Positions 4,915-31,274 of a stretch of 32,000 nucleotides of DNA are shown piece by piece. Under the pieces are notes generated by a model, which had not been told where the DNA came from, ran no database searches, and was given only the letters and a program-made list of their open reading frames with translations. The position numbers and the translations under genes are program-made. The first letter of the stretch is position 1. Each line of letters begins with the position of its first letter. Source of the DNA: Candidatus Iainarchaeum sp. (GTDB taxonomy: Archaea > Iainarchaeota > Iainarchaeia > Iainarchaeales > VGJJ01); contig JAUYHT010000002.1 of NCBI GenBank assembly GCA_030688545.1, positions 360,001 to 392,000 of the forward strand, written 5' to 3'.

Positions 4915-5032
4915 GGCTGAAGGATGGGGAAAAGGGTTTTTTAGGAATTCAAAATGAAAGGTACCCTTTTAACGGGATCCGGGGTGGGTTTCAGGTATCG
5001 ACGAATGGGTGTACGACAAAAGAGGTGTGGGG

Positions 5033-6109
5033 ATGGAACTGGAAGAAAGGATTGACATCATGGCCTATCTCAAGGCCCGCTCGGAGGCCATAGACAGGGA
5101 GATGGAGAAGATCATTCCTCATCAGGCTACTTCGGAGTGGGCGGAAAGAATATTTGGAAAAGCCAGGTATGCGTATGATGTGGAAAGCCTCCAGGGAGCG
5201 TTGAACACCCCTATCTGGGATTTACTGGATCGGGGAGGAAAGCGATGGCGGCCTATTTTATTTCTGCTTTCTCTCGAAGCCGTGGGAGGAGACTCCCAAA
5301 AAAATCATCATTTTTCTGCCATATTTGAAATGGTTCACAACGGAACATTGATGATAGATGATATCCAAGACGATTCCCAACTCCGCCGTGGTAAACCGTG
5401 CACGTACAAAATCTTTGGGGTAGATGTGGCCATTAACGCCGGAAACGCAATGTATTATCTTCCCTATGTCCTTATCCGCGACGCAAAAGATTTTTCTCCT
5501 GAAAAAAAGAATCAACTCTTGGACATTTACATGCAAGAAATGCTTAATATCCATATCGGGCAAGGTATGGATATTATTTGGCATAAAGGACAAAAATATT
5601 CCATTTCAGAAAATGAATACCTACAGATGTGCGCGTACAAAACTGGCACACTAGCCCGTATGGCGGCCAGGATTGGAGCGGCTCTGGGAAATGGAACCGA
5701 GGAACAACAGCACGCGCTCGGAAAATTCTCTGAAACCATTGGGGTAGCCTTCCAAATCCAGGACGACATTTTGAGTTTGGTCGGAGAAGAGTTTGCTAAA
5801 GGAAAGGGAGTAGGGGAAGATATTCATGAAGGAAAAAGGACTTTAATGGTGTTGCACACGTTGAAAAATGGGAGTGAGGATGATAAAAAAAGACTCCTTG
5901 AAATACTGAACGCGCATCCTGAAGACGAAAAAACCATTCGAGAAGCCATATCCATTATCCAGAAATATGGGAGTATCGAATATGCACGGGAGAAAGCCAA
6001 AAGCCTCATGGAGCAATCCTGGAGGGACGTGGAAGCCGTTCTCCCGGAGAGCAATGCTAAAAAACACCTGCGGGCATTCGCTGCATTCTTAATAAACCGG
6101 AAGGTGTGA
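5033..6109 (+). CDS. Geranylgeranyl-diphosphate synthase-like trans-prenyltransferase (type III, eukaryote-like pattern)
   Basis: Both Asp-rich motifs are present (LMIDDIQDDSQLRRGKP and FQIQDDILSL). The segments HNGTLMIDD, GQGMDIIWH and EDIHEGKRT are colinear with type III GGPP synthases as I recall them. ATG 5033 is preceded by GAGGTG; the track start at 5009 is a GTG. Confidence 0.85.
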   Translation: MELEERIDIMAYLKARSEAIDREMEKIIPHQATSEWAERIFGKARYAYDVESLQGALNTPIWDLLDRGGKRWRPILFLLSLEAVGGDSQKNHHFSAIFEMVHNGTLMIDDIQDDSQLRRGKPCTYKIFGVDVAINAGNAMYYLPYVLIRDAKDFSPEKKNQLLDIYMQEMLNIHIGQGMDIIWHKGQKYSISENEYLQMCAYKTGTLARMAARIGAALGNGTEEQQHALGKFSETIGVAFQIQDDILSLVGEEFAKGKGVGEDIHEGKRTLMVLHTLKNGSEDDKKRLLEILNAHPEDEKTIREAISIIQKYGSIEYAREKAKSLMEQSWRDVEAVLPESNAKKHLRAFAAFLINRKV

Positions 6110-6116
6110 CGGGAGC

Positions 6117-7214
6117 ATGGACCTCCACACCGTTATTACCACTCATCGCACCCATATCGATTCGGCTCTGCAGGGATATTTCGAGAAAAAACATTTCGAT
6201 TTGCGCGAAGCGGGAAGCGAGATTGCGGAAGAAAATTACATGGCGATGCGGAATTACATCCTGGGGAAAGGCAAACGGTTGAGGAGCGTGATGGCGCTGG
6301 TGGGGTATGGGGCCTGCGGGGGAAAGGAGGAGGAGAAGATGCTCCTCCCCGCGTTGAGCGTGGAATTCTTCCATAATGCCTCCCTCATCCTGGATGACGT
6401 GATGGATGAAGACAAAGCGCGGAGAGAGATTCCCGCGGCCCACCAGGTCACCGCTAACTGGTTCCGAAAGCGGTTCAAACGTAAAACATATCGCGGGTAC
6501 CTGTTTGCCAATGAGGAATCGCGATTTGCCGTAAGTATGAGTACGATCGGGGCCAATATGCTGTTCTCGCTGGGGGCGCAGACGATATTGGATTCATCAT
6601 TCGAAATGGAGAAGAAAGTGAAAGCCTTGCAAGTATATGAGAAAACTTACCGCCTCGTGAATTTAGGGCAGATGCTGGATATGTATTATGAGCACCAGAA
6701 GAAGGTATCGGCGAAGCAGTATTTGCGCATGGCTTACTTGAAGACCGGGGCCCTATTGGGAGGCGCCCTGAAAATGGGGGGAGTATTAGGAGGAGGAAGC
6801 GACAAGCAGTTGCGCGCGCTCGAGGATTATGCGTTGTACGCGGCGACCACTTTTCAGATTCAGGATGACATATTGGATGTGACCAAAGGAGCCAAAAAGG
6901 GACGGGTGCTGGGAAGCGACCTCCGCAAGGGAAAGACAACTATTTTGGTGCTTGAAGCCAAAGAAATGCTGGATAATGGGGATTGGGGAAAAGTGGAAAA
7001 AGTATTGGGGAATGAAAAAGCCACCAAAGCTCAAGTGAACGCCGCGATAAAAATCCTGCACGAGAAAGGAATCGTTGAGAGTGCCCGGAAGCTGGCCAAA
7101 CAGAACGCCGAAAGGGGAAAAATAGCCCTCCGCCGCGCCCGACCCACTTTCACCAAGGAATACGTGCACATCCTCGAGCAATTCGCGGACTACCTAATGG
7201 AACGAAAGGCGTGA
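6117..7214 (+). CDS. Second polyprenyl synthase paralog, product chain length unassigned
   Basis: Motifs FHNASLILDDVMDEDKARRE (first Asp-rich motif, with RRE where RRG is usual) and FQIQDDILDV (second Asp-rich motif). The ATG is preceded by GGGAG, 7 nt after the upstream stop. A basic insertion of about 24 aa follows the first motif. Confidence 0.8.
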   Translation: MDLHTVITTHRTHIDSALQGYFEKKHFDLREAGSEIAEENYMAMRNYILGKGKRLRSVMALVGYGACGGKEEEKMLLPALSVEFFHNASLILDDVMDEDKARREIPAAHQVTANWFRKRFKRKTYRGYLFANEESRFAVSMSTIGANMLFSLGAQTILDSSFEMEKKVKALQVYEKTYRLVNLGQMLDMYYEHQKKVSAKQYLRMAYLKTGALLGGALKMGGVLGGGSDKQLRALEDYALYAATTFQIQDDILDVTKGAKKGRVLGSDLRKGKTTILVLEAKEMLDNGDWGKVEKVLGNEKATKAQVNAAIKILHEKGIVESARKLAKQNAERGKIALRRARPTFTKEYVHILEQFADYLMERKA

Positions 7215-13091: not shown

Positions 13092-13883
13092 TTAAACCTT
13101 CAAGCGTTTCCGGAGGGTTTTGGCATTCGCGAGGCCCATGTCGAGAGTTTGTTCCAATTCGCTGGGGGAAAAGGATCCCGAACCCCCTTTCTGGAAGGCA
13201 CAAAGAATTCCTTTTTCAGTGCTCCCGAAAGAGAAGCGGGCACTCTGGGCGTGCTCTTCCGTGCGGCGCGGGTCGGCTAAAATGAGACCAGCCGCTTTGG
13301 AATGGGTGGTTAATAGGGGTTGGTTGGCCAATTTGAGATTGCCCGCATATTCGTAATCAACAATTTTTCCATCCTCCACTTTAGGAAGCCGGGTTTGGTT
13401 CAGGGACAGAAGCGCCGCCATGGAAGCGGCATCGAACATGTTGCCATCGTCATTGAGGGCGTACATGTCGATGAACATCATGAGCACCTGCTCCCCGGGG
13501 ATCAAGCATAAGGAGGCGGTGTCGATGGCGTGGCTTTCTCTAATACAGCGGTCAACCACCCGGGCTAATTCAACCTCTTTGGGTTGGGGAGGACCGACTT
13601 CATACTGGGGAGAAGCGAGGGGCGTCAATTCCAATCCCACGGCGATGGCCCCCTCATTAGGGGTGTCGGGGTAAGGGGTTCCAATCCCGAATTTCACGCC
13701 GGCGATGACATCCGTTTTTCCTAATTGGACGCGCGCGGAACCATTCGCATTCTGACTCACACCTGTCTGGAATGAAATATCCCTATATTCGTCCAAGGCC
13801 CGGCCGTCCTCGCGCTTGCCACCGCGCAAAGAAACCAAGGTTTTGGCGCTCTGGAGTTCTACCAATACATCAATCTGCGTCAT
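13092..13883 (-). CDS. rrp42: Exosome complex subunit Rrp42 (RNase PH-like, non-catalytic)
   Basis: 263 aa. REDGRALDEYRDISFQTGVSQNANGSARVQLGKTDVIAGV is the typical Rrp42 N-terminus. It lies immediately after rrp41. Confidence 0.85.
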   Translation of the reverse strand: MTQIDVLVELQSAKTLVSLRGGKREDGRALDEYRDISFQTGVSQNANGSARVQLGKTDVIAGVKFGIGTPYPDTPNEGAIAVGLELTPLASPQYEVGPPQPKEVELARVVDRCIRESHAIDTASLCLIPGEQVLMMFIDMYALNDDGNMFDAASMAALLSLNQTRLPKVEDGKIVDYEYAGNLKLANQPLLTTHSKAAGLILADPRRTEEHAQSARFSFGSTEKGILCAFQKGGSGSFSPSELEQTLDMGLANAKTLRKRLKV

Positions 13884-13895
13884 ATGAGGTCACCT

Positions 13896-14816
13896 TCACT
13901 CCTTTTCCCCGAAAGATTCATTCTCTTCGGGTTGTTCGTCCTGGATATAATCAGCGGCCCCAAACGAGAAGGGGTCCTTCTCGGGGGGATGCTCATGCGT
14001 TCCTTGGGCGGATGGGTCGATGGGAGGAAGATCCTCATACCCCTCCACGGGAGCGGGGGCGGCGCGGGAAAAGGATTCCTTGAGGGCTTCCTTCTGCAAC
14101 GCATAAATGGATTCGATGTTGCTCTGAGCGAGGTCCATCAATTTTGAAAATTCCTCGCGGGTCATCTCCCCATCCATCTGGAGCAAAGTCACTTCTTTGG
14201 AATTGGGGAGGAAAGACACCGCCATGTCAATGGCGTCGGGGGCGTCTTCCTCGTGCTTGTTGAGGTCCACGAGGAGATGGCCATCGGCCCTTCCCACGGT
14301 TATCCCGGTCACGAGATCCCGCATGGGAATGCCCGCATCCGCTACCGCCACCGCGGCCGCTGTCAAGCAGGCGATGCGCGTGCCCGCATTGGAATCCAGC
14401 ACCTCCACGAAGATGTCGATGGCGGTATTGGGAAATCTTTCAAGGAAGATGGCGCGCTCGAGGGCCTCTCCCGATACTTTTGAAATTTCGATCTCGCGCC
14501 GACCGGGGCGAGGATTTTTTCTCTCGGATACCGAGAAGGAGGCCATGCGGTAGGTATAGCGCACGATGGCGCGGTAGGGGTTGGAATGGTGTTTGGGAAG
14601 ACATTCCCGGGGACCATTCACGGCGACCATTACTTTGTTTTGGCCCCATTCGAGGTAGCAGGAGCCATCGGCATTGGGAAGGATTCCTGCCTTTATTTTA
14701 ATGGCGCGCACATCATGCACGCCGCGGCCATCCATGCGCTTGCCGCTCTTATCCACCCAAACGGATTTGGGGTCATTGTCCCCTTTGGGACTTTTTTTGG
14801 TTTTCGGAGTTGCCAT
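13896..14816 (-). CDS. rrp41: Exosome catalytic subunit Rrp41 (RNase PH-like) with Lys-rich N-terminal and acidic C-terminal extensions
   Basis: Motifs RMDGRGVHDVRAIKIKAGILPNADGSCYLEWGQNKVMVAVNGPRE, NAGTRIA and DLNKHEEDAPDAIDM. About 58 extra C-terminal residues are rich in Asp, Glu and Pro. Confidence 0.9.
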   Translation of the reverse strand: MATPKTKKSPKGDNDPKSVWVDKSGKRMDGRGVHDVRAIKIKAGILPNADGSCYLEWGQNKVMVAVNGPRECLPKHHSNPYRAIVRYTYRMASFSVSERKNPRPGRREIEISKVSGEALERAIFLERFPNTAIDIFVEVLDSNAGTRIACLTAAAVAVADAGIPMRDLVTGITVGRADGHLLVDLNKHEEDAPDAIDMAVSFLPNSKEVTLLQMDGEMTREEFSKLMDLAQSNIESIYALQKEALKESFSRAAPAPVEGYEDLPPIDPSAQGTHEHPPEKDPFSFGAADYIQDEQPEENESFGEKE

Positions 14817-14857
14817 ATCGTTTTCACCTATGAATCGTTTTGTAAGATTGAATGATG

Positions 14858-15841
14858 TTATTCGAATGTGGGATCCTCATCCCCGCGAACGCGGTCGTCC
14901 CGGGGAAACCTTTTCCGGGGAGGGAAACGATTGCTATCCCGAGGAGGAAAAGAATTTTCTCGGCGTGAATCCGGGCTTTGAGAATACCCTTCCCCGAACG
15001 AACGGCGAGGACGAAAGTTGTTGGAGGGAGGGCGGCGATCATTCCCTCGGTAATTGGAGGGCGTTGAGCGTGGGCGGAAGGAGGAAGAACCAAAACTCCG
15101 GCGATCCCCTCGAGGGGGGCCGCGGTGGTCGCCCCCACGAAAACCGCCTCGTTGGGGGGGACGGGAATAGCCATGGACATCGAAGGACGCTTCATTCAGC
15201 GGGCCTTGCGTCCCGGGGAGACCCGTGCCTGTTTTGGCGGCGAGAAACTGTTGAATATTCTGTGTCAAGTGGTCGACGTGCGCATAGGTTTCCACGCGCA
15301 GAAGGGCTTCCTTGGCGAGAGCAATATCTCCTCCCTGAAGGAAGATGAACCCATTTCTTCCCACCATAATGTGAGCGCCGGTGCCATTCCGGATGACATT
15401 GAGCATGGACGCATTCTTCCCTATGATCCGGGGAACCTTCACGGGAGTCACGCTCACGACATCCCCTTCAGGAGAGAGGGATTTGACCATGCCTATTTCG
15501 GCCTCGTTGACTTCATTTACTTTAACGACTTTAGCTGAAATAACCCCCCCTATTTTGAGAGGGTCGCGGAGATCCTGCTTGGAGACGAAGGTGGGGTAGA
15601 AGGAGTTGATGTCGACATCATACCCCGCGAACCGCTCGCTCCGGACGATGCCTATGACCACGTCTTCAGACATGGGGAGGTAGCGCCCGCGCAGGGGAAC
15701 GACGGAAATGCGATCTTCGGTTTCATTCTTGATGCCTAAGACATCCGAATAAATGCGATCATGAAAGGCATATACATGGGTTCCCATCTGCTTGAGGTGT
15801 TCGCTCACCATCTCGCCGGGCACCACAATCTCTTTGCTCAT
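14858..15841 (-). CDS. rrp4: Exosome cap subunit Rrp4 (S1 + KH) with an Arg/Gly/Pro/Ser-rich C-terminal tail of about 120 aa
   Basis: S1-like segment DVVIGIVRSERFAGYDVDINS...GGVISAKVVKVNE. KH-like segment VPRIIGKNASMLNVIRNGTGAHIMVGRNGFIFL. The tail contains RGGFRGGDHRGPPRGDRRSFG and repeated FRPR/FPPR units. Confidence 0.85.
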   Translation of the reverse strand: MSKEIVVPGEMVSEHLKQMGTHVYAFHDRIYSDVLGIKNETEDRISVVPLRGRYLPMSEDVVIGIVRSERFAGYDVDINSFYPTFVSKQDLRDPLKIGGVISAKVVKVNEVNEAEIGMVKSLSPEGDVVSVTPVKVPRIIGKNASMLNVIRNGTGAHIMVGRNGFIFLQGGDIALAKEALLRVETYAHVDHLTQNIQQFLAAKTGTGLPGTQGPLNEASFDVHGYSRPPQRGGFRGGDHRGPPRGDRRSFGSSSFRPRSTPSNYRGNDRRPPSNNFRPRRSFGEGYSQSPDSRRENSFPPRDSNRFPPRKRFPRDDRVRGDEDPTFE

Positions 15842-15878
15842 AACGGTCTCACTCCTCTGGGGTTATCTGGATTAAGGT

Positions 15879-16601
15879 TCATTTTTGGATTAGTTTGGTT
15901 ACGACCTCACCTTTCGTGGCGTGGTTGAGGCGGTCGAAGAGTTCCTGCTTCATTCCACCCGGGATCTCGACGAGGGCCACTAAACTCCCATCGGATTGCC
16001 ATTCCTGTTGCTTCAACCCATAGGAATGGAGTACATTCAGGGCGGCCCCCGCATACTGGGGGGGGACTTTGACCCCCACGGTGATCTTCTCCATTGAAAT
16101 GGGGAGGATCTGCCTGAGCTTGGGGATAATATCATTCACCTGGGAGGTTACATCTTTAAACTCATCCACATGAACCTTGGCCTCCTCCAAGGCATGCTCG
16201 ATGCGGAGGGGCGGGTGAGGGGTGTTGGTTTGGGGGTTGAAGGCGTTTTGGGCGATGAAGGCAATGATCTGGCGGCGCTTCTCCTCGCGAAGATGCTTCC
16301 GCTGCTCGGTAGTTAACTGGACCTCGCCATCCTTAACAATCTTGAGGGCAATCTCCCGCGCATCCTTGGTTCCAAAGGCGTGTTGAAGGTCGCTTTCGGT
16401 GGCCTCATCCCCGGCCCTGGCATCCACGAATATCTTTTCCACAGCGAGAAGGTCATGGTTGCTCACGGTTTGCCCGCGGCGCACCTGGAGAGCGAGATCC
16501 GGGTCGACGAGGACCTCGAAACGGGTTCCGCTCTTGGAGAGGCGGGCGATCACAGCATCTTCGAGTTGGACCATAATGGGTGCTTCATTTGGCATATCCA
16601 T
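15879..16601 (-). CDS. SBDS-family ribosome maturation protein (SDO1)
   Basis: [33 protein letters not shown] is the conserved SBDS N-terminus. The track start at 16634 is a TTG. In-frame ATGs lie at 16601, 16595 and 16574; the last gives the family-typical [12 protein letters not shown] start. Confidence 0.85.
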
Positions 16602-16658
16602 TCCGGGAAAATAATTCCTCGGAATGGTTTCCAATGGGGGATGGGTGAATGGGTATAT

Positions 16659-21468: not shown

Positions 21469-23082
21469 TCATTTCCGAGCATGGGGGAAATGATGGTGTT
21501 TCTTGTGATCCTCTTCAGATTCTGACCCATCCACGGACGAAGAATGGTTGTTCTCTTCTTTTGGAGAAGCCGAAGAATCTTTCTTTTCGGGGGCGGGAAT
21601 GGTGGGAAGTGGAGTTGAGGCGTTCCCGGATGATTTGGAATGGATCAACTGGTTGATGAGAGCGGATAGTTGAGCCGCCGCGTCATCCATTTGCTTCACC
21701 CGCTTGTCCATTTCCACCAGTTTTTGGTCCACACGGGATTCGAGGGAACTGGTGGATTTCTTGAACGCCGTTAACGTATCCTCGCGCTCCATATTGGCCT
21801 TGCGGAGAGAAGCGATGAACTGCTTCTGGAACATGTCCAGAGATTGCATGCGGGTGTCGGCCTCCATGAGCTTCTGACCTAATTCCTTCTTGGAGGCATT
21901 GAATTCATCCATTTGGGTCTTTACATGGACATCAAAATCAGCTGTCTTCTGGTGAATGAGGGTGTCCATTTTGGTATTCACGATCTTGTCAATACCATTG
22001 ATCTTCTCATCCACGTCTTCTAAACGCGTAGCGAGTTCATCGTCGAAATGGGCCTTGGCGGCATCCAATTGATGGGTTAAATCGGCGAACTCCTTAAGCA
22101 CCTCCTGGACATCACGCGAGGCCAAGTCGGCACCCAATTTCTTGAGTTGAATAATCTCATCCTGCATGTCATCCCGCAAGTCCTTCACGCGCGCTTCTAG
22201 TATTTGGTTGGCCTGTTGCTGGAGCTGGTCCGCGAGGCCGGAGGTTATTTTCTGCTCCAATTCTAAAGTATGCGTGGCGCGTGTTTCGACATCGCGGAGT
22301 TTTTCTTCGGTGGAGGAAACCAAATCATTGACCCTGGACTCGATGTCGTCCAGTTTGGTGTTGACATCATCCAAAATGGATCGGCGCAGGGAATCCAACC
22401 CCTCCACTTTTGTGGAGAAATCCGCCACCAAATCCTGCAAAATCATCCGCTGACCCTTGATGCGCTGTAAGTCTTCTTGCGTGGCGAGATTTAAGGTCTT
22501 GATCTCCTCGATCTTCTGGGTGAGCATCCCATCCATGTCGCGGGATTTGGCGTTGAGTTGGCCCTCGATGCGCATGCTCATGAGATCACGCTGGCTTTCA
22601 AAGAGGGTTTCCATTTTCTTCTCGAGGGCTTTTACATGCTGTTGAATGCGGGCCTCCATGGCATCATCGATGGACTTTTCCAATTGCTCCATTTTGACGA
22701 GCTTGGAATTCACCGTGTCGAGGATTCCTTTCTCCCAGAGATCGACGTTGGACTTGAAGGAAGGCGGGGTGGGAAGGGTAAGCGTGGAAGTATGGGCGGA
22801 AGGCGCACGCATCGTGCCTCGATGGGGAGGTGATGAAGGTTGGGATGACGCATGAGGTGAGGAATGGGCGGGGAGAGATGCATCCGATGAAATGGGTTTT
22901 TCCTTGGATTCATGCGAGTGGGCTGCTGTTTCCATTTGCTCCCGGTGGGCGTCGCGGTATACTTCTTCCGCCTGGTGGTGGGTTAGGCCCATGGCCTGGA
23001 GCTCCTTCACTAATTCATCCCGCTCCAAACCCATGCGGACGAGCTTCCGGACCGATTCGAGGATAGCGGGGCTGTAGGGCAT
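21469..23082 (-). CDS. Long coiled-coil / helical-repeat protein with a small UBA-like N-terminal domain and a His-rich C-terminus
   Basis: From ATG 23082 the protein reads MPYSPAILESVRKLVRMGLERDELVKELQAMGLTHHQAEEVYRDA. A Ser/Pro/His-rich linker follows, then about 400 aa of amphipathic helix repeats (for example LDDVNTKLDDIESRVNDLVSSTEEKLRDVE). The protein ends in HKKHHHFPHARK. The track start at 23193 is a TTG. Confidence 0.7.
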   Translation of the reverse strand: MPYSPAILESVRKLVRMGLERDELVKELQAMGLTHHQAEEVYRDAHREQMETAAHSHESKEKPISSDASLPAHSSPHASSQPSSPPHRGTMRAPSAHTSTLTLPTPPSFKSNVDLWEKGILDTVNSKLVKMEQLEKSIDDAMEARIQQHVKALEKKMETLFESQRDLMSMRIEGQLNAKSRDMDGMLTQKIEEIKTLNLATQEDLQRIKGQRMILQDLVADFSTKVEGLDSLRRSILDDVNTKLDDIESRVNDLVSSTEEKLRDVETRATHTLELEQKITSGLADQLQQQANQILEARVKDLRDDMQDEIIQLKKLGADLASRDVQEVLKEFADLTHQLDAAKAHFDDELATRLEDVDEKINGIDKIVNTKMDTLIHQKTADFDVHVKTQMDEFNASKKELGQKLMEADTRMQSLDMFQKQFIASLRKANMEREDTLTAFKKSTSSLESRVDQKLVEMDKRVKQMDDAAAQLSALINQLIHSKSSGNASTPLPTIPAPEKKDSSASPKEENNHSSSVDGSESEEDHKKHHHFPHARK

Positions 23083-23204
23083 GCTTGGAAAAGGGTTTTT
23101 GCCGAATAAAAAGTAGTCCTTTCCCAGGGAGGGGATGGGGCGTTTTATAAAACGATGGCGGGAGGATTTTGATATCGGAAAAGTCCCTTTCAACCGAATC
23201 GGCT

Positions 23205-23237
23205 TTTTTGATCAAACTTTTTTTCTAAAAAAGTTTG
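23205..23237. repeat. Dispersed fifth copy of the TTTGATCAAA + CAAAC-T7/A6-GTTTG palindromic element
   Basis: TTTTTTGATCAAACTTTTTTTCTAAAAAAGTTTG differs by one loop base from the copies at 10595-10629 and 10726-10760. Its last G is G1 of tRNA-Ala. Confidence 0.8.
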
Positions 23238-23308
23238 GGCGCTTGGCGCAATGGTAGCGCGCTTCCATGGCATGGAAGAGGTTGGGGGTTCAAGTCCCCC
23301 AGCGTCCA
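23237..23308 (+). tRNA. tRNA-Ala: tRNA-Ala, anticodon GGC
   Basis: Hand-folded cloverleaf. The acceptor stem is GGGCGCT/AGCGTCC and includes the G3:U70 alanine identity pair. The anticodon stem is CTTCC/GGAAG with loop ATGGCAT. The T arm is GGGGG-TTCAAGT-CCCCC. The discriminator is A. Confidence 0.9.
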
Positions 23309-23385
23309 TCGCGGTTTTCGACTACGATACCCATTTGAAGGGAAAAAGGGCCAACGGTTAATAAGTTGGGGTAAATGGACTCATT

Positions 23386-24126
23386 ATGGCAACATTGACC
23401 AACAGTTTTTTTGACATCAACAAGCTGCCAGCCGAAGAAGGCATTTTAGTTTTCCCCATTTCAATGAGTCGAATTTCCAACATACAAGACGCAAAACATT
23501 GTTGGGATTATTTATTGATATTCAGTCCAGAAAAAATAATCAAACCATTGGTAGGATTAAATTTTTTCTATTGCGACTACCTCTATTTTTCATCCGATGA
23601 AAAGGCATCAACACTAAAAAAGAAATTTAGTCAATTGATTGTAAATCACAAAAATGAATTTCTCAATATTATTCGCAAAAATCCATTTTATATTGAAAAG
23701 GCTGTCTCTTTTACGACTTGGAATCAGATATATCTGGACTGCAAAGATTTTACCAGATTTTTTGGAGAGCTCAAAAGGTTATATCAGTCGGACGAGAAGT
23801 TGAGGGGATACATGAAAGAAGATGCGGCACGGGCGAAGAAAAAGTTGACTCTAAATCAAATTGACTTCTTCCTGGAGGAGATTTTATTTTCTTATCTGGT
23901 GACGAAAGGGGAGGTTACACTCCACAATGAATTTATTCAGAATCACCACAAGTGGATTTTATATTGTTATCCAGGTAAACCATTGAAAGCTCAGATTTAT
24001 ATTTTTCAGAAAAACCCATTCAAACGGTATAATCCCAACAATAAGTTTGATGATGCATACTATGATTTGGCCGACAAAAAACTATACAACCTTGCAAAAA
24101 TTGACCTCAAAACATTTGATCTATAA
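23386..24126 (+). CDS. Hypothetical protein in the AT-rich island, with a weak colinear resemblance (judged by eye) to tRNA-dependent cyclodipeptide synthases
   Basis: 246-aa ORF with AT-rich codon usage. Segments of interest: ILVFPISMSRISN, KAVSFTTWNQIY...ELKRLYQSDEKLRGYMKEDA, LNQIDFFLEEILFSY and WILYCYPGKP. See the corresponding finding. Confidence 0.55.
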   Translation: MATLTNSFFDINKLPAEEGILVFPISMSRISNIQDAKHCWDYLLIFSPEKIIKPLVGLNFFYCDYLYFSSDEKASTLKKKFSQLIVNHKNEFLNIIRKNPFYIEKAVSFTTWNQIYLDCKDFTRFFGELKRLYQSDEKLRGYMKEDAARAKKKLTLNQIDFFLEEILFSYLVTKGEVTLHNEFIQNHHKWILYCYPGKPLKAQIYIFQKNPFKRYNPNNKFDDAYYDLADKKLYNLAKIDLKTFDL

Positions 24127-24218
24127 CCCGACTATACCATATTTTTAGAATGCTTCAATGTGAATCATAATCGATACATATTTAAATCATTTATGGGGTT
24201 ATTGGTTTAGGTGACTGT

Positions 24219-24461
24219 ATGAATGTGATTTTGAGGGGAAAAACGAAACAAATCGCGGAAGCCATGGTGGAAGAAGGCTATGCCAATTCCCAATCGGAAG
24301 CCATACGGTTAGCATTGGTTGATTTTGGGCAACACCATTTCGGGGAAGTAGAGTTAGTTAATCGGAAACTAGATCGCATTGACGAGGAAATCAAATCTGG
24401 GAAACGAAAGCTGCTGAACGCGGATGAGGCATTGGGAAACTATTCCAAAAATGCCAAGTGA
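24219..24461 (+). CDS. Ribbon-helix-helix (CopG/ParD-like) small DNA-binding protein
   Basis: MNVILRGKTKQIAEAMVEEGYANSQSEAIRLALVDF fits a beta-strand plus two-helix RHH pattern. AGGTGA lies 5 nt upstream of the ATG. Confidence 0.6.
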   Translation: MNVILRGKTKQIAEAMVEEGYANSQSEAIRLALVDFGQHHFGEVELVNRKLDRIDEEIKSGKRKLLNADEALGNYSKNAK

Positions 24462-24485
24462 TGCTCCAATCCCCTCATCCCGTTT

Positions 24486-24529
24486 CTATAAGTTTACTAT
24501 AAATTACTATAACTTATAGTAACTTATAG
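24486..24529. repeat. Inverted repeat CTATAAGTT/AACTTATAG plus a tandem duplicate TAACTTATAG x2
   Basis: The arms lie at 24486-24494 and 24511-24519, with a second direct copy at 24521-24529. The cluster lies between convergent gene ends (24461 and 24531). Confidence 0.6.
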
Positions 24530-24530
24530 T

Positions 24531-25916
24531 TCATTTGGTTTCAATAATGAGAGTATAGTAGGCCCCTCGATATTTGCCGTTTTTTCTTATTTTTCCTTGC
24601 TTGATAAGCTCATTAAGATCGGCGGTTGCCGTCGGTTGTGATACCCCCGTCATTTTTCGATAGTCGGCCGTCTTAAGAATAGGGTTCTTTTGGAGGTATT
24701 GCAGGGCCTGTTTTTGTCTTTTGTTTAATCCATCCACTTCTTTTCGTGGTTTTTTGCTGGAGTGATTATAGAAAATAACTTGGAATTGATTTCCGATTTC
24801 GTAGAATTCTGGATCTGGTAAGCGGGCTTGGCGAAACTGCTTGCGGATGAGGCGAACCCCCAATCCAAGACCTTCTCCTAATTTTAGTTCATGCAAAAGC
24901 CGGTAAACAATCGGGTTACGATGAACTGGGGTTCGATCAAAATTGTTAATATTTTGTCCCGGCATGAGCCCGCCTGGATTCGTAATCTGTAATCGGTCTT
25001 CGTAAATCTCGATTAGAGCTTCTTTGGTTTCGAAATAATCACGATGGCCGATTGCGTTGGTAATGACTTCGCGAAGAGATTGCTCTGGATAATCCAATAT
25101 TTCCTCTCTCTTAGCTCCCACAAGCGTTAAGTGTTTCCCAACATTTTCTTTCACGATTCGATAGGTTTGTTCGATAAGCTCGGGAATCGTTCCCTGAACT
25201 TTTTTATCGTGAACAATAGAACTGAGATCAGATTCCATTCCCATATATTTGACAATTCGTACTTCTAAATTTGAAAAGAACCGATTGGGATCCTTGGCGA
25301 AAAACAGCAGTGCAGCATTCTTAAGAAAAAATTCCCCATTATAGTTGGCTACATTTATTCCAGCTAAGACTGGCTTTAGCTCGTCTTCCTTTTTTGGATT
25401 GATCTTTACCCCTCTAATCTTCAATAGTTTTCCAACTTTTTCCAGATCCAGACTGTCCATATTCGCCTTGCTTCGGGATTCTTCAAAGTTCATTAGCGCA
25501 CGCTTTTTGAGAAAGTCCATCAACTCTTCCCCCGCAAGCGAAAGATTGGTGGTTCCCTGCCGGACGTAACATATCTTCTTGAAAAAACAGGGATTATGGG
25601 AGAGTGGAAAAGCCTCTATTTTTAGCACGATAAACGTTTTTCCCTCATGGCGAACAAACTCTTGCTCAGGCCGAGGATCCGGACGACATTGTTCCAACGT
25701 GGCACGAATGATTTGAGACGAAACATCGGGGTTATTGACTCCAACAGGTGTTTTTTCCTTCGGATCGACGCCGATAACGATTAGCCCACCGAAAGAATTC
25801 GCAAATGCTGCAACGGTCTTCCCCAGACTAACTTCGGACGCATTGGACTTAAATTCTAATGCGGGACTTTCCCAATCTTCAATCCAACGAAGAAGGTCAC
25901 TGTACGAGTAGGACAT
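24531..25916 (-). CDS. AlbA_2 (Schlafen-like) + HATPase_c_4 + winged-helix protein (the family usually annotated as RecG-like / putative transcriptional regulator)
   Basis: N-terminal segment ESPALEFKSNAS...GKTVAAFANSFGGLIVIGVD. Central segment REVITNAIGHRDYFETKEALIEIYEDRLQITNPGGL. C-terminal wHTH LNKRQKQALQYLQKNPILKTADYRKMTGVSQPTATADLNELIKQGKI. The first ATG is at 25916; the track start at 25937 is a TTG. Confidence 0.8.
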   Translation of the reverse strand: MSYSYSDLLRWIEDWESPALEFKSNASEVSLGKTVAAFANSFGGLIVIGVDPKEKTPVGVNNPDVSSQIIRATLEQCRPDPRPEQEFVRHEGKTFIVLKIEAFPLSHNPCFFKKICYVRQGTTNLSLAGEELMDFLKKRALMNFEESRSKANMDSLDLEKVGKLLKIRGVKINPKKEDELKPVLAGINVANYNGEFFLKNAALLFFAKDPNRFFSNLEVRIVKYMGMESDLSSIVHDKKVQGTIPELIEQTYRIVKENVGKHLTLVGAKREEILDYPEQSLREVITNAIGHRDYFETKEALIEIYEDRLQITNPGGLMPGQNINNFDRTPVHRNPIVYRLLHELKLGEGLGLGVRLIRKQFRQARLPDPEFYEIGNQFQVIFYNHSSKKPRKEVDGLNKRQKQALQYLQKNPILKTADYRKMTGVSQPTATADLNELIKQGKIRKNGKYRGAYYTLIIETK

Positions 25917-26050
25917 GTAGGGAGACCATATGTTCAAAAATTAAAAGCCTATGCAAAAATTACGAGCTCATTTTATCAGATTCACGAGGCATAGCTGCGG
26001 CATGAAGCCTGTGAGTAGGGTAAATCAGAATAAACCCCCCGGCGTCCAAT

Positions 26051-26455
26051 TTACTCGAAAATAAGTATGTATAGCGATACAATAAATAAAAATAATCCGC
26101 CAAAAAAAGTGAATACTTCAAAGGGTCTATGAAATGAGTAAAGTAAAAGGGCAACGCTTAAAGAAATAATCCCAGCCAAAACAAATTCTTGATGAAGCTC
26201 TAAATCAGGAACCCCCCGAATTCTTTTCACAGCTCCGATAAATACTATCAGAATAATCTGAACAATTGAGGACAATAAAATGCTAATCAAAATGATAATT
26301 TCAGTCGAATATTGGGCAAAAAAAGTACTAATACTATAACCCGCATTCGCATATAAAATGAACAGACCTATACCAAGAATGTTCCAGATATAGAAAGGAA
26401 CCGCTTCAACTTTTTTTGAAACGGCCTCTAACACAGTTGATGCATCAGACATCAT
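26051..26455 (-). CDS. Small integral membrane protein (about 4 TM helices), function unknown
   Basis: 134 aa with four hydrophobic stretches (for example FYIWNILGIGLFILYANAGY and IIILISILLSSIVQIILIVFIGAV). It starts 4 nt after the Sm gene stop. Confidence 0.55.
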   Translation of the reverse strand: MMSDASTVLEAVSKKVEAVPFYIWNILGIGLFILYANAGYSISTFFAQYSTEIIILISILLSSIVQIILIVFIGAVKRIRGVPDLELHQEFVLAGIISLSVALLLYSFHRPFEVFTFFGGLFLFIVSLYILIFE

Positions 26456-26459
26456 TATC

Positions 26460-26690
26460 TCACGGCGAAATCAATAGAATGTTATCCCCGCGCAGGACGA
26501 CCTTTCCGTATTTTGTTTTTGGGTTTCCGTTCTCCAGGCTCTCGGCGTTCTCGAGCACAATATTCATGTGGACGTCGAAGGCTTTTAGGACACCACGGAA
26601 TTGAAGATTGCCCTTGAGCTCAACTAACACGTTTTTACCGATGCTCTCGTTCAGCAGGTCGAAGGGTCTGGATGGGGTTTGATTGGCCAT
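26460..26690 (-). CDS. Sm-like archaeal protein (SmAP/LSm)
   Basis: From ATG 26690 (GGAGG lies 8 nt upstream) the protein reads MANQTPSRPFDLLNESIGKNVLVELKGNLQFRGVLKAFDVHMNIVLENAE...VVLRGDNILLISP, which contains the Sm1 and Sm2 motifs. The track start at 26780 has no such support. Confidence 0.85.
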   Translation of the reverse strand: MANQTPSRPFDLLNESIGKNVLVELKGNLQFRGVLKAFDVHMNIVLENAESLENGNPKTKYGKVVLRGDNILLISP

Positions 26691-26797
26691 GGTACTATTC
26701 CTCCAAGAAAAGAATGGTTGATAGGAGACTGGATGACCAAAACTACTTAAATAAACACCCATGGGGGGGATTTTCACCACTATTTCAATGACTTCCT

Positions 26798-26896
26798 CCC
26801 CACCCTAAAGGGTGGGGTATCCAACAAATAGAAAACGCCACCTGCGCGCGAGATCGCTCGCCAAACAATGGGCGACGAATGGCGCCCTAAAGGGCG
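26798..26896 (-). other. Cluster of GC-rich stem-loops in the 261-nt untranslated gap upstream of the Sm gene (candidate structured leader or small RNA)
   Basis: CCCCACCC-TAAA-GGGTGGGG lies at 26798-26817. CGCCC-TAAA-GGGCG lies at 26883-26896. GCGAG-ATCG-CTCGC lies at 26848-26861. A closing pair CGCCA (26836-26840) / TGGCG (26880-26884) is also possible. Confidence 0.3.
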
Positions 26897-26915
26897 AGGA
26901 ATCCATCTTTTTCCC

Positions 26916-26938
26916 CGGGCTTTTTTCTAAAAAGCCCG
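26916..26938 (-). terminator. Hairpin CGGGC-T5/A5-GCCCG just after the minD stop
   Basis: A 10-bp stem with a 3-nt loop lies 14 nt downstream of the stop at 26952-26954. On the minus strand it is preceded by a T7 run. It has the same architecture as the CAAAC-T/A-GTTTG hairpins. Confidence 0.4.
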
Positions 26939-26951
26939 ATTGAAAAAAAGC

Positions 26952-29183
26952 CTATACTTTCATCTCTTCCACGCCACTGCCCTTCTTTCCCCCGAAGAGA
27001 CGGGAGAAGAAAGAGGCGATGGATGCCAGAATCCCTTGGCGTGGGGTAGGATGGGAGTCCCCGTGAATGGGTAAACCCGCGAGTCGGGCAGCGAGCTTCT
27101 GAACTTCAATGCATGATTTGGCCTGGGGGTTGCGGAGGATGACGGGCACCACTTTATCCTTGATGAAGGAGTGACGCATCTCCACATCATACGGGATGAC
27201 CGCGTAAACCGGGAGCTCGAGCATGCGAGAGACTTCATCTTTGGAAATTTCCCCCTTCTCGAAATGCACCATGTTGAGGACAATGCCAAGGGGCTTGCTG
27301 CCCAGGCGCTGGGCGACAATCTTGGTTTTCAAAACGTCCGCGATGGATGGGGAATCGGGAGTCGCGATGAGCAAACATTCATCCGTGGCCGCGATGGACG
27401 CCAGAACGGATTTCTCGATGCCAGCGGGGCCGTCGAGGATAACAAAATCGTATTTATGCTGGATGGACTTGATGATGGAGGAAAGCCTGTCCGCGTCGAC
27501 GCGGCGATAGTTCTCAAGAGATAATCCAGAAGGAATAAGTTTCAGGCCGGCCGGACCATCGTACAACGCATCCTGCACCCCCGCTTCCCCGAGGAGGACA
27601 TCATGCAGAGTGATGGGAGAGGACTGCATCCCCAGCAACAAGGAAAGGTTGGCCATGGCGATATCCGCGTCAACCAAACAAACGGAGACTCCGCGCTGGG
27701 CGAGCGCGATGCCCAAGTTGGCGGCGATGGAGGTATTGGAACATAGGATTCCCGTGGCATGGGCGAAATGCCCGCCATAATCCGTTATCTGGAAATCATA
27801 CACATAGGGATGATCGTAGGGAATTCGTTTTACCTCTTCCACGCGGCGAAATTCAACATTATCATTCAGCATTTGCTCCAGCCAGGACAGGAGGGGGTGC
27901 TGAACCATCAAACGACGATACACTTCCAAATACCGTCGGACAGCCCCTTTGGAAAGGGCATAATATTCCCACTCGTATTCGTACACCATCTGCTTGGTGC
28001 AACCCAATTCCTTTCCGATCTGTAGACCCGTGTACCCGGCATCCATGCGAATTTGCTTTAGGAGTTTTCCCACAGGGTACACATCAATATTCGTGTTCTC
28101 AACCGCTGGACTCTGAAGCTGATCAAGGAGGCGGAATGCTTTCCTTTTTCCCGTGAATCCAATGTAATCCGAATATCGTTGGGCATTAGCCCCTGTAATG
28201 TAAATACGCCAATAGGGTTGTTTGGAGGCCATTCTCCCATTGGTGGCCATTTTATAGGTCAATTTTATCTGGGAAGAGATTCCGAAACGCGTGCGCAAAA
28301 TCGAGGCCACCTGGAATGCCAATTTCTTCGATTTGGTATCCAGTTCGATTTCCCGTCGATTGATGTTCACCGTCCCATCCGTATCAAAAAGACCCCTTAG
28401 GAAGGCGGCAATGGATGGGTTTTGGGAATGGAATAGAGCGGTTGGCACCTCCTTCTCCCCGGCCAAGGCTATTTTTACCCCATACTTCATGAAAAGATCG
28501 CGAATGGTTTTCTTTTTGTACTGGCTGAAAACATGCAGCCCACGATCCATATTTTCATGGATTTCCCCAAAAACATCTTTGTATGCGTTCCGAATGTTAT
28601 CCGCCAAGTCTCCGGGCTCGGCACAGATGGAAATACGGTTCGCCTCCATATGCCCATCCCCGATAACGTATCCCAACCACGTAGCAATAGGGATAGGAAC
28701 ACCCTCAGCATTCTCCTGATCATAAACGCCCTTGTGCAACACCAAATAATCTTTCGCTGGGATAATCGCGTCGGCCCGGATTTTCTGCAAACGACCAGAC
28801 CGCATCACAATGAAATGGTGTTCGGGCGTGACGGAAACACTCCCTGCCGCACAGGAAACGGTGAGCAACTCCTTGGGAGCTGGCTTACGCATCAAATGAA
28901 CGGGTTTATCCTGGAAATGCACGACCTTCTGGTTCTCCTCCGAAAACAAAAAAGCGTGAAGCTGCAAATCGCCTGGCGAATCGAGGACCTCAAACACTTC
29001 TTCCAAACCATCAACAGTTTTCACGATGGCTTTCTTCACGGCTAATGGGTTCTGGGCGATGAGGGAATCGATGTACGGGCCGATTTGAATGATATCCCCA
29101 TTCGCCAATGAGATGAACTCATCCTTATGAAGGCTCTTCCCCACGCCGCCCTTCCCCGAAACAATAGTGATACTGCGACCCAT
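26952..29183 (-). CDS. minD: MinD-type P-loop ATPase interrupted by an intein (743-aa precursor; predicted spliced product 276 aa)
   Basis: The N-extein is MGRSITIVSGKGGVGK. The C-extein is TSIAANLGIALAQRGVSVCLVDADIAMANL...FVILDGPAGIEKS...FFSRLFGGKKG. Joining them restores the deviant Walker A motif GKGGVGKTS. The DGPAGIE Walker B motif and a C-terminal amphipathic helix are present. Confidence 0.9.
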   Translation of the reverse strand: MGRSITIVSGKGGVGKSLHKDEFISLANGDIIQIGPYIDSLIAQNPLAVKKAIVKTVDGLEEVFEVLDSPGDLQLHAFLFSEENQKVVHFQDKPVHLMRKPAPKELLTVSCAAGSVSVTPEHHFIVMRSGRLQKIRADAIIPAKDYLVLHKGVYDQENAEGVPIPIATWLGYVIGDGHMEANRISICAEPGDLADNIRNAYKDVFGEIHENMDRGLHVFSQYKKKTIRDLFMKYGVKIALAGEKEVPTALFHSQNPSIAAFLRGLFDTDGTVNINRREIELDTKSKKLAFQVASILRTRFGISSQIKLTYKMATNGRMASKQPYWRIYITGANAQRYSDYIGFTGKRKAFRLLDQLQSPAVENTNIDVYPVGKLLKQIRMDAGYTGLQIGKELGCTKQMVYEYEWEYYALSKGAVRRYLEVYRRLMVQHPLLSWLEQMLNDNVEFRRVEEVKRIPYDHPYVYDFQITDYGGHFAHATGILCSNTSIAANLGIALAQRGVSVCLVDADIAMANLSLLLGMQSSPITLHDVLLGEAGVQDALYDGPAGLKLIPSGLSLENYRRVDADRLSSIIKSIQHKYDFVILDGPAGIEKSVLASIAATDECLLIATPDSPSIADVLKTKIVAQRLGSKPLGIVLNMVHFEKGEISKDEVSRMLELPVYAVIPYDVEMRHSFIKDKVVPVILRNPQAKSCIEVQKLAARLAGLPIHGDSHPTPRQGILASIASFFSRLFGGKKGSGVEEMKV
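27735..29135 (-). mobile_element. Intein with LAGLIDADG homing endonuclease (467 aa) inserted in the MinD Walker A loop
   Basis: Block A is SLHKDEFISLANGD (Ser1). Block B is VTPEHHF. The LAGLIDADG motifs are WLGYVIGDGH and FLRGLFDTDGTV. An HTH-like segment LQIGKELGCTKQMVYEYE is present. Blocks F/G read VYDFQITDYGGHFAHATGILCSN followed by Thr at +1. Confidence 0.85.
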
Positions 29184-29290: not shown

Positions 29291-30274
29291 CTAATAGAAA
29301 GGCCTTTTGGCAAATAACCCTTTTTCTTTGATGAATTTGGACAGGGACATAGCCCTTGCCTGCCGCTCGAGAGCAAACAAGTCATCCGCTGCTTCGAATG
29401 GATCTTTCTTCTGGGTTTTGGGATTTAGCATACCACAAACTAGAACGGCCAGCATTTTTTCAGGTGTGAGGTGAAGGGGATATCGGTATACTGTTTCACC
29501 AAGGGTGCCGCTGTAATAGGATATTCGATGGATGCATTTGTTTATCTGTCCCCGCAAATCGGGCGAAGTGGTGCGACGGGTGTAGAGGTATAACAATTGG
29601 CGCGCCGATTCGGGGGTGCCAATCTTTCCTAAAGTGTGAAGAACTTGGAAACGAGAACGTGGGAAAAGATGAAGACACCGGAACAAGGTGGCACGCGTTG
29701 TTTCATCGGAGAATCGTTCCAGTCGCTCAATCGCCAATTCCCTATTCGCCAGAGTGGGGTCGTGCAGTGACACGAACCGGAGCAGATCGCGGGTGAGGGG
29801 ATGATCTATCATGCTGACGCGCATGAGCGCCCGATACCGGATGGAATGAATAGGATCTCGGAGGGCCGCATAGGCTAAATATGGAAACGATTTGCTTGGA
29901 TGAGGCACTCCTTTCAAGAATAGCCAGCTCCCGAAAAGGTCCGTTGATCGTGGGGCACTTTCCATTTCCTCCCGACCCATCTCAACAATTGCCTCTATGC
30001 GGAGACCACGTTTTTCTTGGGAATCCAGACTGCGCACAAATTGTTCGATAAAACGAAGATCTCTCCCGGGAGGGAGCTGGGCCTTGCCAGCATAGGCCGG
30101 GACATTCATGAACATCCGCCGCCAGAGCCGGTCGTACCACTGTATCAACAACCGACGGCGCTCAGGAGGAGTGGAATCCGGTAATCTGGATTTGAGAGCT
30201 CGAGCACGGGAACGCAATGTTTTCCGCCCGCGTGGATGAGAAGCCGGCATGGAGAGAAGATCGGCTCCTCCCAT
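29291..30274 (-). CDS. HEAT-like repeat protein with a basic N-terminus
   Basis: ALRDPIHSIRYRALMRVSMIDHPLTRDLLRFVSLHDPTLANRELAIERLERF resembles HEAT_2/PBS-lyase-type repeats. The ATG is at 30274. The track start at 30289 is a TTG that overlaps the upstream stop. Confidence 0.55.
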   Translation of the reverse strand: MGGADLLSMPASHPRGRKTLRSRARALKSRLPDSTPPERRRLLIQWYDRLWRRMFMNVPAYAGKAQLPPGRDLRFIEQFVRSLDSQEKRGLRIEAIVEMGREEMESAPRSTDLFGSWLFLKGVPHPSKSFPYLAYAALRDPIHSIRYRALMRVSMIDHPLTRDLLRFVSLHDPTLANRELAIERLERFSDETTRATLFRCLHLFPRSRFQVLHTLGKIGTPESARQLLYLYTRRTTSPDLRGQINKCIHRISYYSGTLGETVYRYPLHLTPEKMLAVLVCGMLNPKTQKKDPFEAADDLFALERQARAMSLSKFIKEKGLFAKRPFY

Positions 30275-30285
30275 AAAAGGATTGC

Positions 30286-30747
30286 TCAATCCCCATGCGC
30301 CTTGAGAAAGGATTCGATTTCCCTGGCGAGGACCCTGAGCTCGACGGTGGTCAGATCGGAGGTGGCGCGGACGATGTAGACCTTTTCCTGGTGGGGGAAA
30401 ACCATGAACCAGCGGTCTTTCTCTTTCACGAGGATGGTTTCAGATTCGGGGAGCTCGGATTTGACATAGTTGAACATGGATGAACCGATGATGGCCTCTG
30501 AGAAATCATTTTCATCCGTGGAGATGACGATGCTCCCATTGGGAGAACAGATGCAAATGGAATCCACCAAATGTTTTTTCTTCATGGACTGCATGAGTTC
30601 CTGGAGGGAGGAGGTATTCAATTCATAGCGGTGGCGGGAAAGAAAATTCTTGAGGAGATGCATCTGGTCACGCGGTACTTTGTGGTCATCCACATCCAAA
30701 ACCTTGCGGGTGATGTTGTCCAACAATCCCCTCATTTTGCCAAACAT
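30286..30747 (-). CDS. Roadblock/LC7-like (MglB-like) domain protein, tentative
   Basis: In this 153-aa protein the C-terminal 95 aa (VDSICICSPNGSIVISTDENDFSEAIIGSSMF...WFMVFPHQEKVYIVRATSDLTTVELRVLAREIESFL) follow the alpha-beta-alpha Roadblock pattern by eye. Confidence 0.5.
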   Translation of the reverse strand: MFGKMRGLLDNITRKVLDVDDHKVPRDQMHLLKNFLSRHRYELNTSSLQELMQSMKKKHLVDSICICSPNGSIVISTDENDFSEAIIGSSMFNYVKSELPESETILVKEKDRWFMVFPHQEKVYIVRATSDLTTVELRVLAREIESFLKAHGD

Positions 30748-30779: not shown

Positions 30780-31274
30780 CTATCTTCCTATACCCGCCAG
30801 CCCGAATTTCTTGAAAAGAGACTCCTTGGACTGGGATTCCTCGGGGCGGGTCCCCTGGAGCACGGTTCGGATGAGCTGAGGGTCAAATGGCTTGATGAAA
30901 GGAGAAAACTGGCCCTTGGATAAGGGTTTGGATAACGCGAGCTTGCCATTGAAAGCCATGACTAAGTCAACCTGCTGCAAGGATAAGGAAACGATGTCGA
31001 TGACGGTGTGTTCGGCGGCCATGGCGTTGAAGACATGAGGAAGGGATTCTGACCCATAAAGAATTTTGGAGACACCATGGTATTCAAACACCCCCCCCAT
31101 GCCCTGGCCGACGCGGAAGAGGAGGGCTCCTTCGTCTACGCCTATTTCGGATAGGGTGGAGAGGATAAGGTAGCCGGAAAAGGTGTCACGTGCCAGGATA
31201 TCCAACTCCTTTTTGGCATCGAACTGGCGGGATGACTGGCCCTGGGCCTTGAAAACACCCGTGGGGAGGTTCAT
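30780..31274 (-). CDS. Hypothetical protein with a PATAN/DUF4388-like pattern, tentative
   Basis: 164 aa. FSGYLILSTLSEIGVDEGALLFRVGQGMGGVFEYHG...YGSESLPHVFNAM...VIDIVSL resembles the sGyL...eG.l.F..G.i...y...G..AL pattern. It is the first gene of the co-directional cluster. Confidence 0.45.
   Translation of the reverse strand: MNLPTGVFKAQGQSSRQFDAKKELDILARDTFSGYLILSTLSEIGVDEGALLFRVGQGMGGVFEYHGVSKILYGSESLPHVFNAMAAEHTVIDIVSLSLQQVDLVMAFNGKLALSKPLSKGQFSPFIKPFDPQLIRTVLQGTRPEESQSKESLFKKFGLAGIGR

Follow-up and report, generated by a model that had tools for sequence, protein, structure and literature searches.

The window analyzed here is a stretch of 32,000 nucleotides from Candidatus Iainarchaeum sp. 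(GenBank assembly GCA_030688545.1, contig JAUYHT010000002.1, positions 360,001 to 392,000 of the forward strand), and its reverse strand carries a minD gene, an open reading frame (ORF) of 743 amino acids, of which 467 amino acids (precursor residues 17-483) form an insert. The first-pass annotation of this DNA had proposed that the insert is a LAGLIDADG intein that splits the Walker A loop of a MinD ATPase, such that its excision rejoins GKGGVGK to TSIAANLG. We found that the boundaries were placed correctly and that the proposal itself is borne out by family profiles, by a gapless match to alleles lacking the insert, by the catalytic residues, by the predicted fold and by the pattern among related populations.

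Removal of the insert recovers an archaeal MinD from end to end. Excision of residues 17-483 fuses the N-extein (MGRSITIVSGKGGVGK) to TSIAANLG..., yielding a product of 276 amino acids (29.3 kDa), which scored 275.6 bits against the NCBIfam model for archaeal MinD, TIGR01969 (minD_arch; curated cut-off 201.75 bits), with residues 3-252 matching profile positions 1-246 in one stretch; the unspliced precursor, with the intein in place, scored 251.1 bits. The deviant Walker A motif (xKGGxGK[ST]) is restored, as SGKGGVGK/T (here and below, the slash marks the insertion point), only once the insert is removed, and Thr484 is then the Walker A threonine. With the spliced sequence as query, we obtained 664 relatives at E <= 1e-30, and the best 120 of these 664 are 260-293 amino acids in length, except for a single partial copy of the gene carried by the window. 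Moreover, two intein-free relatives, P0051 (90% identity) and P0052 (83% identity, named Candidatus Diapherotrites), aligned without a gap across GKGGVGK/TSIAANLG; the spliced product is thus contiguous with MinD, as the first-pass annotation had expected. The insertion is also clean in the DNA, lying between an AAG or AAA lysine codon and an ACC or ACG threonine codon, and the junction in an empty allele (L004) reads ...GGGAAGGGGGGCGTAGGAAAA/ACCTCCATCGCCGCGAATTTAGG.... The G+C content of the insert is 0.485, compared to 0.563 in the exteins, and in two alleles the G+C of the intein lies ~7 points under that of the exteins. The identification as MinD is a family assignment, and the presumed ATPase activity and role in positioning or cell division follow from the name only.

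Within the insert, the domain order is a Hint N-terminal lobe with blocks A and B, a LAGLIDADG domain with a double motif, an XRE-type helix-turn-helix (HTH) module and a Hint C-terminal lobe with blocks F and G (Table 1). The motifs that we recognized are Ser1, T-P-E-H, VYD...GGHF, GILCSN/T, LGYVIGDG and FLRGLFDTDG; all four blocks and both LAGLIDADG motifs with their acidic residues are therefore present, as claimed. The Pfam model PF14528 (LAGLIDADG_3) matched the insert at 64.6 bits (cut-off 22.5), and the NCBIfam models for intein-containing IF2, DnaB, RpoA'', RFC, RNR, PolII and VMA proteins matched it via their intein parts.

We compared a predicted structure of the intein with solved structures. 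The AlphaFold2 (AF2) model, made from 29 sequences, had a predicted local distance difference test (pLDDT) score of 91 and a predicted template modeling (pTM) score of 0.91, and its best PDB match with Foldseek was the TliVMA intein (E 9e-26, TMq 0.71, TMt 0.77), followed in order by PI-PkoII, PI-PfuI, PhoVMA and PI-SceI, and then by free LAGLIDADG enzymes and mini-inteins (PabCDC21-1, TFIIB); the matches to solved inteins range from E 9e-26 to 1e-10. A phmmer search of the insert against PDB sequences gave weak matches (PI-PkoII, E 8e-5). The HTH segment was likewise weak by profile (PF13560, HTH_31), and when its 83 residues were modeled alone, AF2 predicted five helices with a pLDDT of 86, for which the top Foldseek matches were XRE/Cro-type HTH proteins only (TM 0.6-0.7). 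From its sequence and its modeled fold, we identify the insert as a class-1 intein with a double-motif LAGLIDADG endonuclease and an XRE-type HTH module. Specifically, the endonuclease of the window copy looks intact, with both catalytic aspartates, the conserved lysine and the HTH present.

Table 1. Features of the interrupted minD gene, in window coordinates; residue numbers are those of the precursor unless stated otherwise.
Feature	Position	Strand	Remarks
minD precursor ORF	26952..29183	-	743 aa, 82.4 kDa; N-extein, intein and C-extein
N-extein	29136..29183	-	16 aa (MGRSITIVSGKGGVGK); last residue is the Walker A lysine; matches the N-terminus of intein-free alleles exactly
Intein	27735..29135	-	467 aa, 53.1 kDa; Ser1 ... 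Ser-Asn; residues 17-483
C-extein	26952..27734	-	260 aa and stop codon; first residue is the +1 nucleophile, Thr484
Hint N-terminal lobe	28704..29135	-	block A (Ser1) and block B; mostly beta strand in the AF2 model, intein residues 1-134; Foldseek intein matches
Block B, T-P-E-H	28818..28829	-	Thr119, His122; invariant in 17/17 aligned alleles
LAGLIDADG homing-endonuclease domain	28104..28703	-	pseudo-dimeric double motif; PF14528 E 1e-17; Foldseek TliVMA, PI-PkoII, PI-PfuI, I-DmoI
LAGLIDADG motif 1, LGYVIGDGHM	28647..28676	-	catalytic Asp176; Asp in 16/17 alleles, Glu in the ParA intein
LAGLIDADG motif 2, FLRGLFDTDGTV	28368..28403	-	catalytic Asp269; Asp in 16/17 alleles, Gly in P0001
XRE/Cro-type HTH module (NTNIDVYPVGK...GCTKQMVYEYEW...)	27852..28100	-	PF13560 E 0.003; AF2; Foldseek; aligns with HTH_3/HTH_31 of MCM-a inteins
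Hint C-terminal lobe	27735..27851	-	block F VYDFQ...GGHF (Asp463, His472); block G GILCSN (Ser482, Asn483)

Antisense ORFs inside the intein, such as one of 170 amino acids at 28533..29045 on the forward strand, were considered as genes, but we found no support for them and take them for side effects of the coding sequence on the opposite strand.

When the precursor was used as query, 16 clusters of MinD proteins of 713-767 amino acids (P0001-P0004 and P0006-P0017) proved to carry this insert at the identical position; where their sources are named, the names are Diapherotrites, Micrarchaeota, Pacearchaeota or just "archaeon" (the host taxonomy of relatives is given throughout as the sources name it). 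A scan of metagenomes with an alignment of the intein only added ~9 further loci from groundwater and other samples, all in MinD and all with the same junction. The MinD genes that carry the insert are without exception of DPANN type. Thus, where the first-pass annotation had suggested a search for MinD and ParA alleles with and without an insert at GK/T, both kinds were found in MinD, and a ParA allele with a different intein was found as well (see below).

The residues expected to carry out splicing are strongly conserved in these proteins. We aligned the 16 MinD alleles with the ParA intein (P0018), giving 17 aligned alleles. Ser1, the threonine and histidine of block B, the aspartate and histidine of block F, the terminal Ser-Asn and Thr+1 are identical in all 16 MinD alleles; across the whole alignment, Asp463 of block F and Asn483/Thr484 are invariant, while His472 is found in all MinD alleles. 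Both LAGLIDADG aspartates are retained in 15 of the 16 MinD alleles. Relative to the nearest insert-bearing (filled) allele with DNA, L002, the proportions of nonsynonymous (pN) and synonymous (pS) differences were 0.18 and 0.83 for the intein and 0.13 and 0.74 for the exteins, and within the intein the endonuclease and HTH sub-domains (pN ~0.15-0.19, pS ~0.82-0.86) resembled the splicing domain; synonymous sites are saturated in this comparison, and pN and pS are given in place of dN/dS. Since the Hint, endonuclease and HTH parts show similar pN and pS, the comparison indicates purifying selection on the entire intein.

The element has a patchy distribution. In a neighbor-joining tree of the exteins, four filled alleles pair with empty ones (the window with P0051, P0002 with P0058, P0004 with P0063 and P0006 with P0141), and the gene string of a 164-aa ORF, a 153-aa ORF, minD and LSm is unchanged between filled and empty loci. 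Between the most distantly related hosts, intein identity is 40-45% and extein identity only 28-36%. Decay is represented by P0170 (596 aa), which is without motif 1 and without the HTH. The filled, empty and decayed alleles fit a homing cycle of invasion, fixation, endonuclease decay and loss. A viral vector is unsupported: a scan of viral contigs found only distant inteins (22-23% identity), on giant-virus contigs, and none in MinD. These distant relatives, on Nucleocytoviricota-type contigs of IMG/VR (L088 and L089), share a motif close to block A, [VI]EIGPFID.

To place the intein among its relatives, we relied on an exhaustive search of 1.84 billion representative proteins with a profile of the MinD inteins. 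Next after MinD came MCM helicases (300-380 bits), in which the match spans the P-loop intein at GDPG[VAS][AG]K/C ... HN/S, the MCM-a (CDC21-a) site. In a pairwise comparison, the MinD and MCM-a inteins aligned over nearly their full length (E 8e-33, 25% identity), including an NTN[IV]DV.P motif and the HTH, which is significant in the MCM inteins by Pfam (HTH_3 with E-values down to 3e-11 for an MCM and 4e-11 for a fragment of an intein; HTH_31 with E 5.5e-7). Since MCM-a inteins carry the same HTH at the same position, the HTH is a trait of the family and not an addition specific to this copy. The HTH-like segment noted in the first-pass annotation is thus present, and is XRE-type by model, but it is not the extra segment for which it was taken. 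The precursor search also yielded relatives at GK/T in FtsH and PhoH, every one of which has Cys1 and His-Asn.

MCM-a and VMA-b inteins likewise follow the Walker A lysine directly (PMC10643990), the site in MinD being the classic P-loop intein site. Transfer of inteins from one P-loop to that of an unrelated protein has also been reported (PMC10710043). The MinD intein conforms to this pattern, as a P-loop intein that would have colonized another Walker A; we name its insertion site MinD-a in this analysis.

The MinD and MCM-a inteins are alike in their insertion right after the Walker A lysine (PMC10643990), in their succession of Hint, LAGLIDADG, XRE-type HTH and Hint-C and in the common NTN[IV]DV.P...HTH motif, and homology between them is directly detectable. 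They differ in their hosts, an AAA+ helicase and a MinD/ParA-type SIMIBI ATPase, and in their chemistry, since the MCM-a inteins found here have Cys1, His-Asn and Ser+1, while the MinD clade has Ser1, Ser-Asn and Thr+1. The VMA-b inteins of the archaeal A-type ATPase subunit A (TliVMA and PhoVMA; PDB 7qss, 7qsu and 7qst) are the best structural match, also follow the Walker A lysine (PMC10643990) and also contain a LAGLIDADG endonuclease, but are in another host and have ~19% sequence identity to the MinD intein. PI-PkoII, PI-PfuI and PI-SceI (Foldseek E 1e-19 to 1e-10) similarly combine Hint and LAGLIDADG with additional DNA-binding elements; in these, however, the accessory DNA-binding domains are others, the hosts are PolB, RNR and yeast VMA1, and the terminus is the canonical His-Asn.

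The ParA allele provides a further comparison. P0018 (L086, 258..2816), from a metagenome, is a ParA gene directly upstream of parB, with an intein of 590 amino acids at its Walker A GK/T. The host has the same deviant Walker A (KGGVGK/T), belongs to the same superfamily and is interrupted at the same point, but its intein has Cys1, His-Asn and an extra insert in the Hint N-lobe, and is 22% identical to the MinD intein. Since the two inteins differ, the MinD/ParA superfamily appears to have been invaded at least twice, and the ParA intein looks like a second, independent invasion.

Taking these results together, we put at roughly 0.85 the probability that the insert is a genuine class-1 intein with its own LAGLIDADG endonuclease and XRE-type HTH, located directly after the Walker A lysine of a DPANN-type archaeal MinD. 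The termini of the intein bear on how it would splice. A penultimate histidine normally aids asparagine cyclization in inteins and is common, but not obligatory. The first-pass annotation had considered both termini non-canonical. This holds for the penultimate serine, which departs from the norm, but not for Ser1 and Thr+1, which are among the standard class-1 nucleophiles (PMC4031507). Of the termini, only the serine at G:6 is atypical, and the pairing of Ser1 with Ser-Asn is a clade-specific trait. Splicing without the penultimate histidine is documented (PMC4031507, citing Chen, Benner and Perler 2000; Ssp DnaE). Those inteins are like the MinD intein in having a residue other than histidine at G:6 with blocks F and B retained; they differ in their hosts, and they would not imply efficient asparagine cyclization with serine at G:6.

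The class-1 pathway consists of an N-to-O acyl shift, a transesterification, asparagine cyclization and an O-to-N shift (PMC4031507). In the MinD precursor, we expect that Ser17 would undergo the N-to-O acyl shift at the Lys16-Ser17 bond, aided by Thr119 and His122 of block B, and that the hydroxyl of Thr484 would then attack the ester, giving a branched intermediate. Asn483 would cyclize and free the 53-kDa intein, with Asp463 and His472 of block F assisting and Ser482 in the place of the usual penultimate histidine, and an O-to-N shift would leave a normal Lys-Thr bond, so that GKGGVGKT is rebuilt in a 29-kDa MinD. Once free, the intein would be predicted to cleave minD alleles without an insert where they encode the P-loop, and repair would then copy the intein into them (homing). 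Because the P-loop is split between the 16-residue N-extein and the remainder of the protein until excision, ATP binding, and with it MinD function, should depend on splicing. Splicing itself, DNA cleavage and mobility are all predictions of this scheme.

We also note that Ser1 comes directly behind the Walker A lysine in the precursor, which gives it the sequence GKGGVGKS at the junction (29133..29156, reverse strand), the genuine Walker A of many bacterial MinD-like genes. A scan of genome contigs for SGKGGVGKS picked up bacterial genes of the MinD/FlhG-like type whose Walker A is GKS, and no intein-bearing locus was among the matches listed.

Several observations weigh against an intein that splices readily and is still mobile. 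The penultimate histidine (G:6) is replaced by Ser482 across all 16 MinD alleles, and this serine together with two hydroxyl nucleophiles could make splicing slow or conditional. Of the profile checks suggested by the first-pass annotation, that for the endonuclease was clear, but the models for the splicing domain stayed under their thresholds: PF14890 (Intein_splicing) scored 31.4 bits against a cut-off of 35.8 (E 2e-7), and TIGR01445 scored 15.5 bits against 24.5 (E 0.026). The saturation of synonymous sites relative to L002, given above, softens the argument from selection. Finally, P0001 has glycine in place of aspartate at the second catalytic site, and L090 (2..1282) carries a stop codon in frame close to residue 44 of the intein, although the latter is on a contig of 3x coverage and could be a sequencing error. 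Thus, not every copy of the intein would be active.

These defective copies, together with P0170, are what might be expected if the intein splices but is immobile in this lineage, its endonuclease being inactive or without a target, and if it persists since imprecise deletion would destroy the essential P-loop; sequence alone, moreover, does not reveal endonuclease activity. However, the window copy keeps its catalytic residues and its HTH, and these sub-domains have pN and pS values like those of the splicing domain. In addition, there is an empty allele at 90% extein identity, so targets exist in related populations. We consider it rather unlikely that the intein is immobile here.

We also considered that the intein might have been domesticated as a conditional switch. 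In such a case, the all-hydroxyl chemistry and the serine at G:6 would make splicing slow or dependent upon the environment, resulting in a post-translational gate on the supply of active MinD ATPase in these ultra-small DPANN archaea, and the freed HTH protein might in addition serve as a regulator that binds DNA, beyond its part in homing. This would accord with the fixation of Ser1, Ser-Asn and Thr+1 in all MinD alleles, where the related P-loop inteins found here have Cys1 and His-Asn, with purifying selection over the whole intein and with an HTH of the XRE repressor type. Nevertheless, a patchy distribution with empty sister alleles marks a selfish homing element and not a fixed regulator, and the same HTH is found in MCM-a inteins, for which recognition of target DNA is the simplest reading. 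A switch, including a regulatory HTH protein, therefore seems doubtful to us, and distinctly more so than a loss of mobility.

The missing penultimate histidine and the sub-threshold Hint profiles could also be taken to mean that the insert is not spliced at all, in which case the gene would encode a broken MinD without function or a protein that does something else. Such a gene would not be expected to have constrained exteins (pN 0.13 relative to pS 0.74) that pass the MinD cut-off, and the other catalytic residues are invariant across alleles with inteins only 40% identical; we think this very improbable. An assembly chimera or frameshift artifact, suggested by the metagenomic source and by an insert G+C under that of its flanks, can be set aside with near certainty because the identical 743-aa protein occurs on a contig of an independent assembly, and there are besides a 100% identical partial NCBI protein (P0005), filled homologs with the same junction in many independent samples and a continuous reading frame.

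With the insert taken to be a class-1 intein at MinD-a, the host gene is what is new. That MinD is an unrecognized intein host, as the first-pass annotation suspected, fits our searches of the literature and of family models, although the sequences are already public in at least 16 clusters. In the literature searched, no paper dealt with inteins of MinD or ParA, and none was relevant to inteins in DPANN phyla or in chromosome partitioning. Neither MinD nor ParA is mentioned in the main text of Novikova et al. (2016), and an intein survey covered DPANN archaea with two genomes and one intein (PMC10643990). The "intein-containing" exception models of NCBIfam cover other proteins and not MinD, and the public names of the filled proteins are a plain "cell division ATPase MinD". 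We conclude that the intein allele is undescribed or at least unflagged, and that every part of it is of a known kind, the novelty being a host gene for the P-loop intein family.

Although the understanding of inteins as such is unchanged by the MinD intein, it adds a cell-organization ATPase of the MinD/ParA (SIMIBI) class to a list of hosts made up mainly of ATPases for replication, repair and energy. The MinD intein is also a clear example from nature of one P-loop intein family spreading among unrelated ATPases (MCM, FtsH, PhoH and MinD) via their common GK/T. In practical terms, annotation of these precursors as a plain "MinD" of ~740 amino acids can mislead orthology and size-based quality checks, and the natural, cysteine-free intein offered by the fixed Ser1, Ser-Asn and Thr+1 may be of interest in protein engineering.

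Upstream of minD, the conserved gene string contains a further ORF in the window. An ORF of 332 amino acids with HEAT repeats (PF13646, E 2e-7; 29291..30289, reverse strand) lies between the conserved 153-aa ORF and minD, with a 4-bp overlap with the upstream ORF. At this position it is missing from L001 and L002, and there is no room for it on the short L004 contig, but it is present on L085, which is an independent assembly of the same organism. The HEAT-repeat ORF looks like a lineage-specific insertion into an otherwise conserved gene string. The 153-aa ORF (30286..30747) and the 164-aa ORF (30780..31274), both on the reverse strand, have no significant Pfam or NCBIfam family. Their counterparts precede minD in longer related loci, whether filled or empty, as genes of 154 and 165/166 amino acids (L001, L002), and a 141-aa gene occupies that position on the short contig L004; we regard the two as candidate partner proteins of MinD.

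On the other side of minD, the region beyond LSm varies among related loci. In the window, the G+C content falls to 0.40-0.43 at ~23000..27000, compared to ~0.51-0.56 around it, starting right after a tRNA-Ala(GGC) gene (23236..23310). This stretch includes a family-less ORF of 246 amino acids and a 468-aa protein with Schlafen/AlbA_2, HATPase_c_4 and winged-HTH domains (24531..25937, reverse strand), and may be an island integrated beside the tRNA-Ala gene. Farther away, the window has an exosome gene string on its reverse strand (13092..16634), encoding two RNase PH subunits, an Rrp4-like subunit and SBDS, along with a tandem pair of polyprenyl synthetase genes on its forward strand (5009..7214), which together confirm an archaeal chromosomal context.

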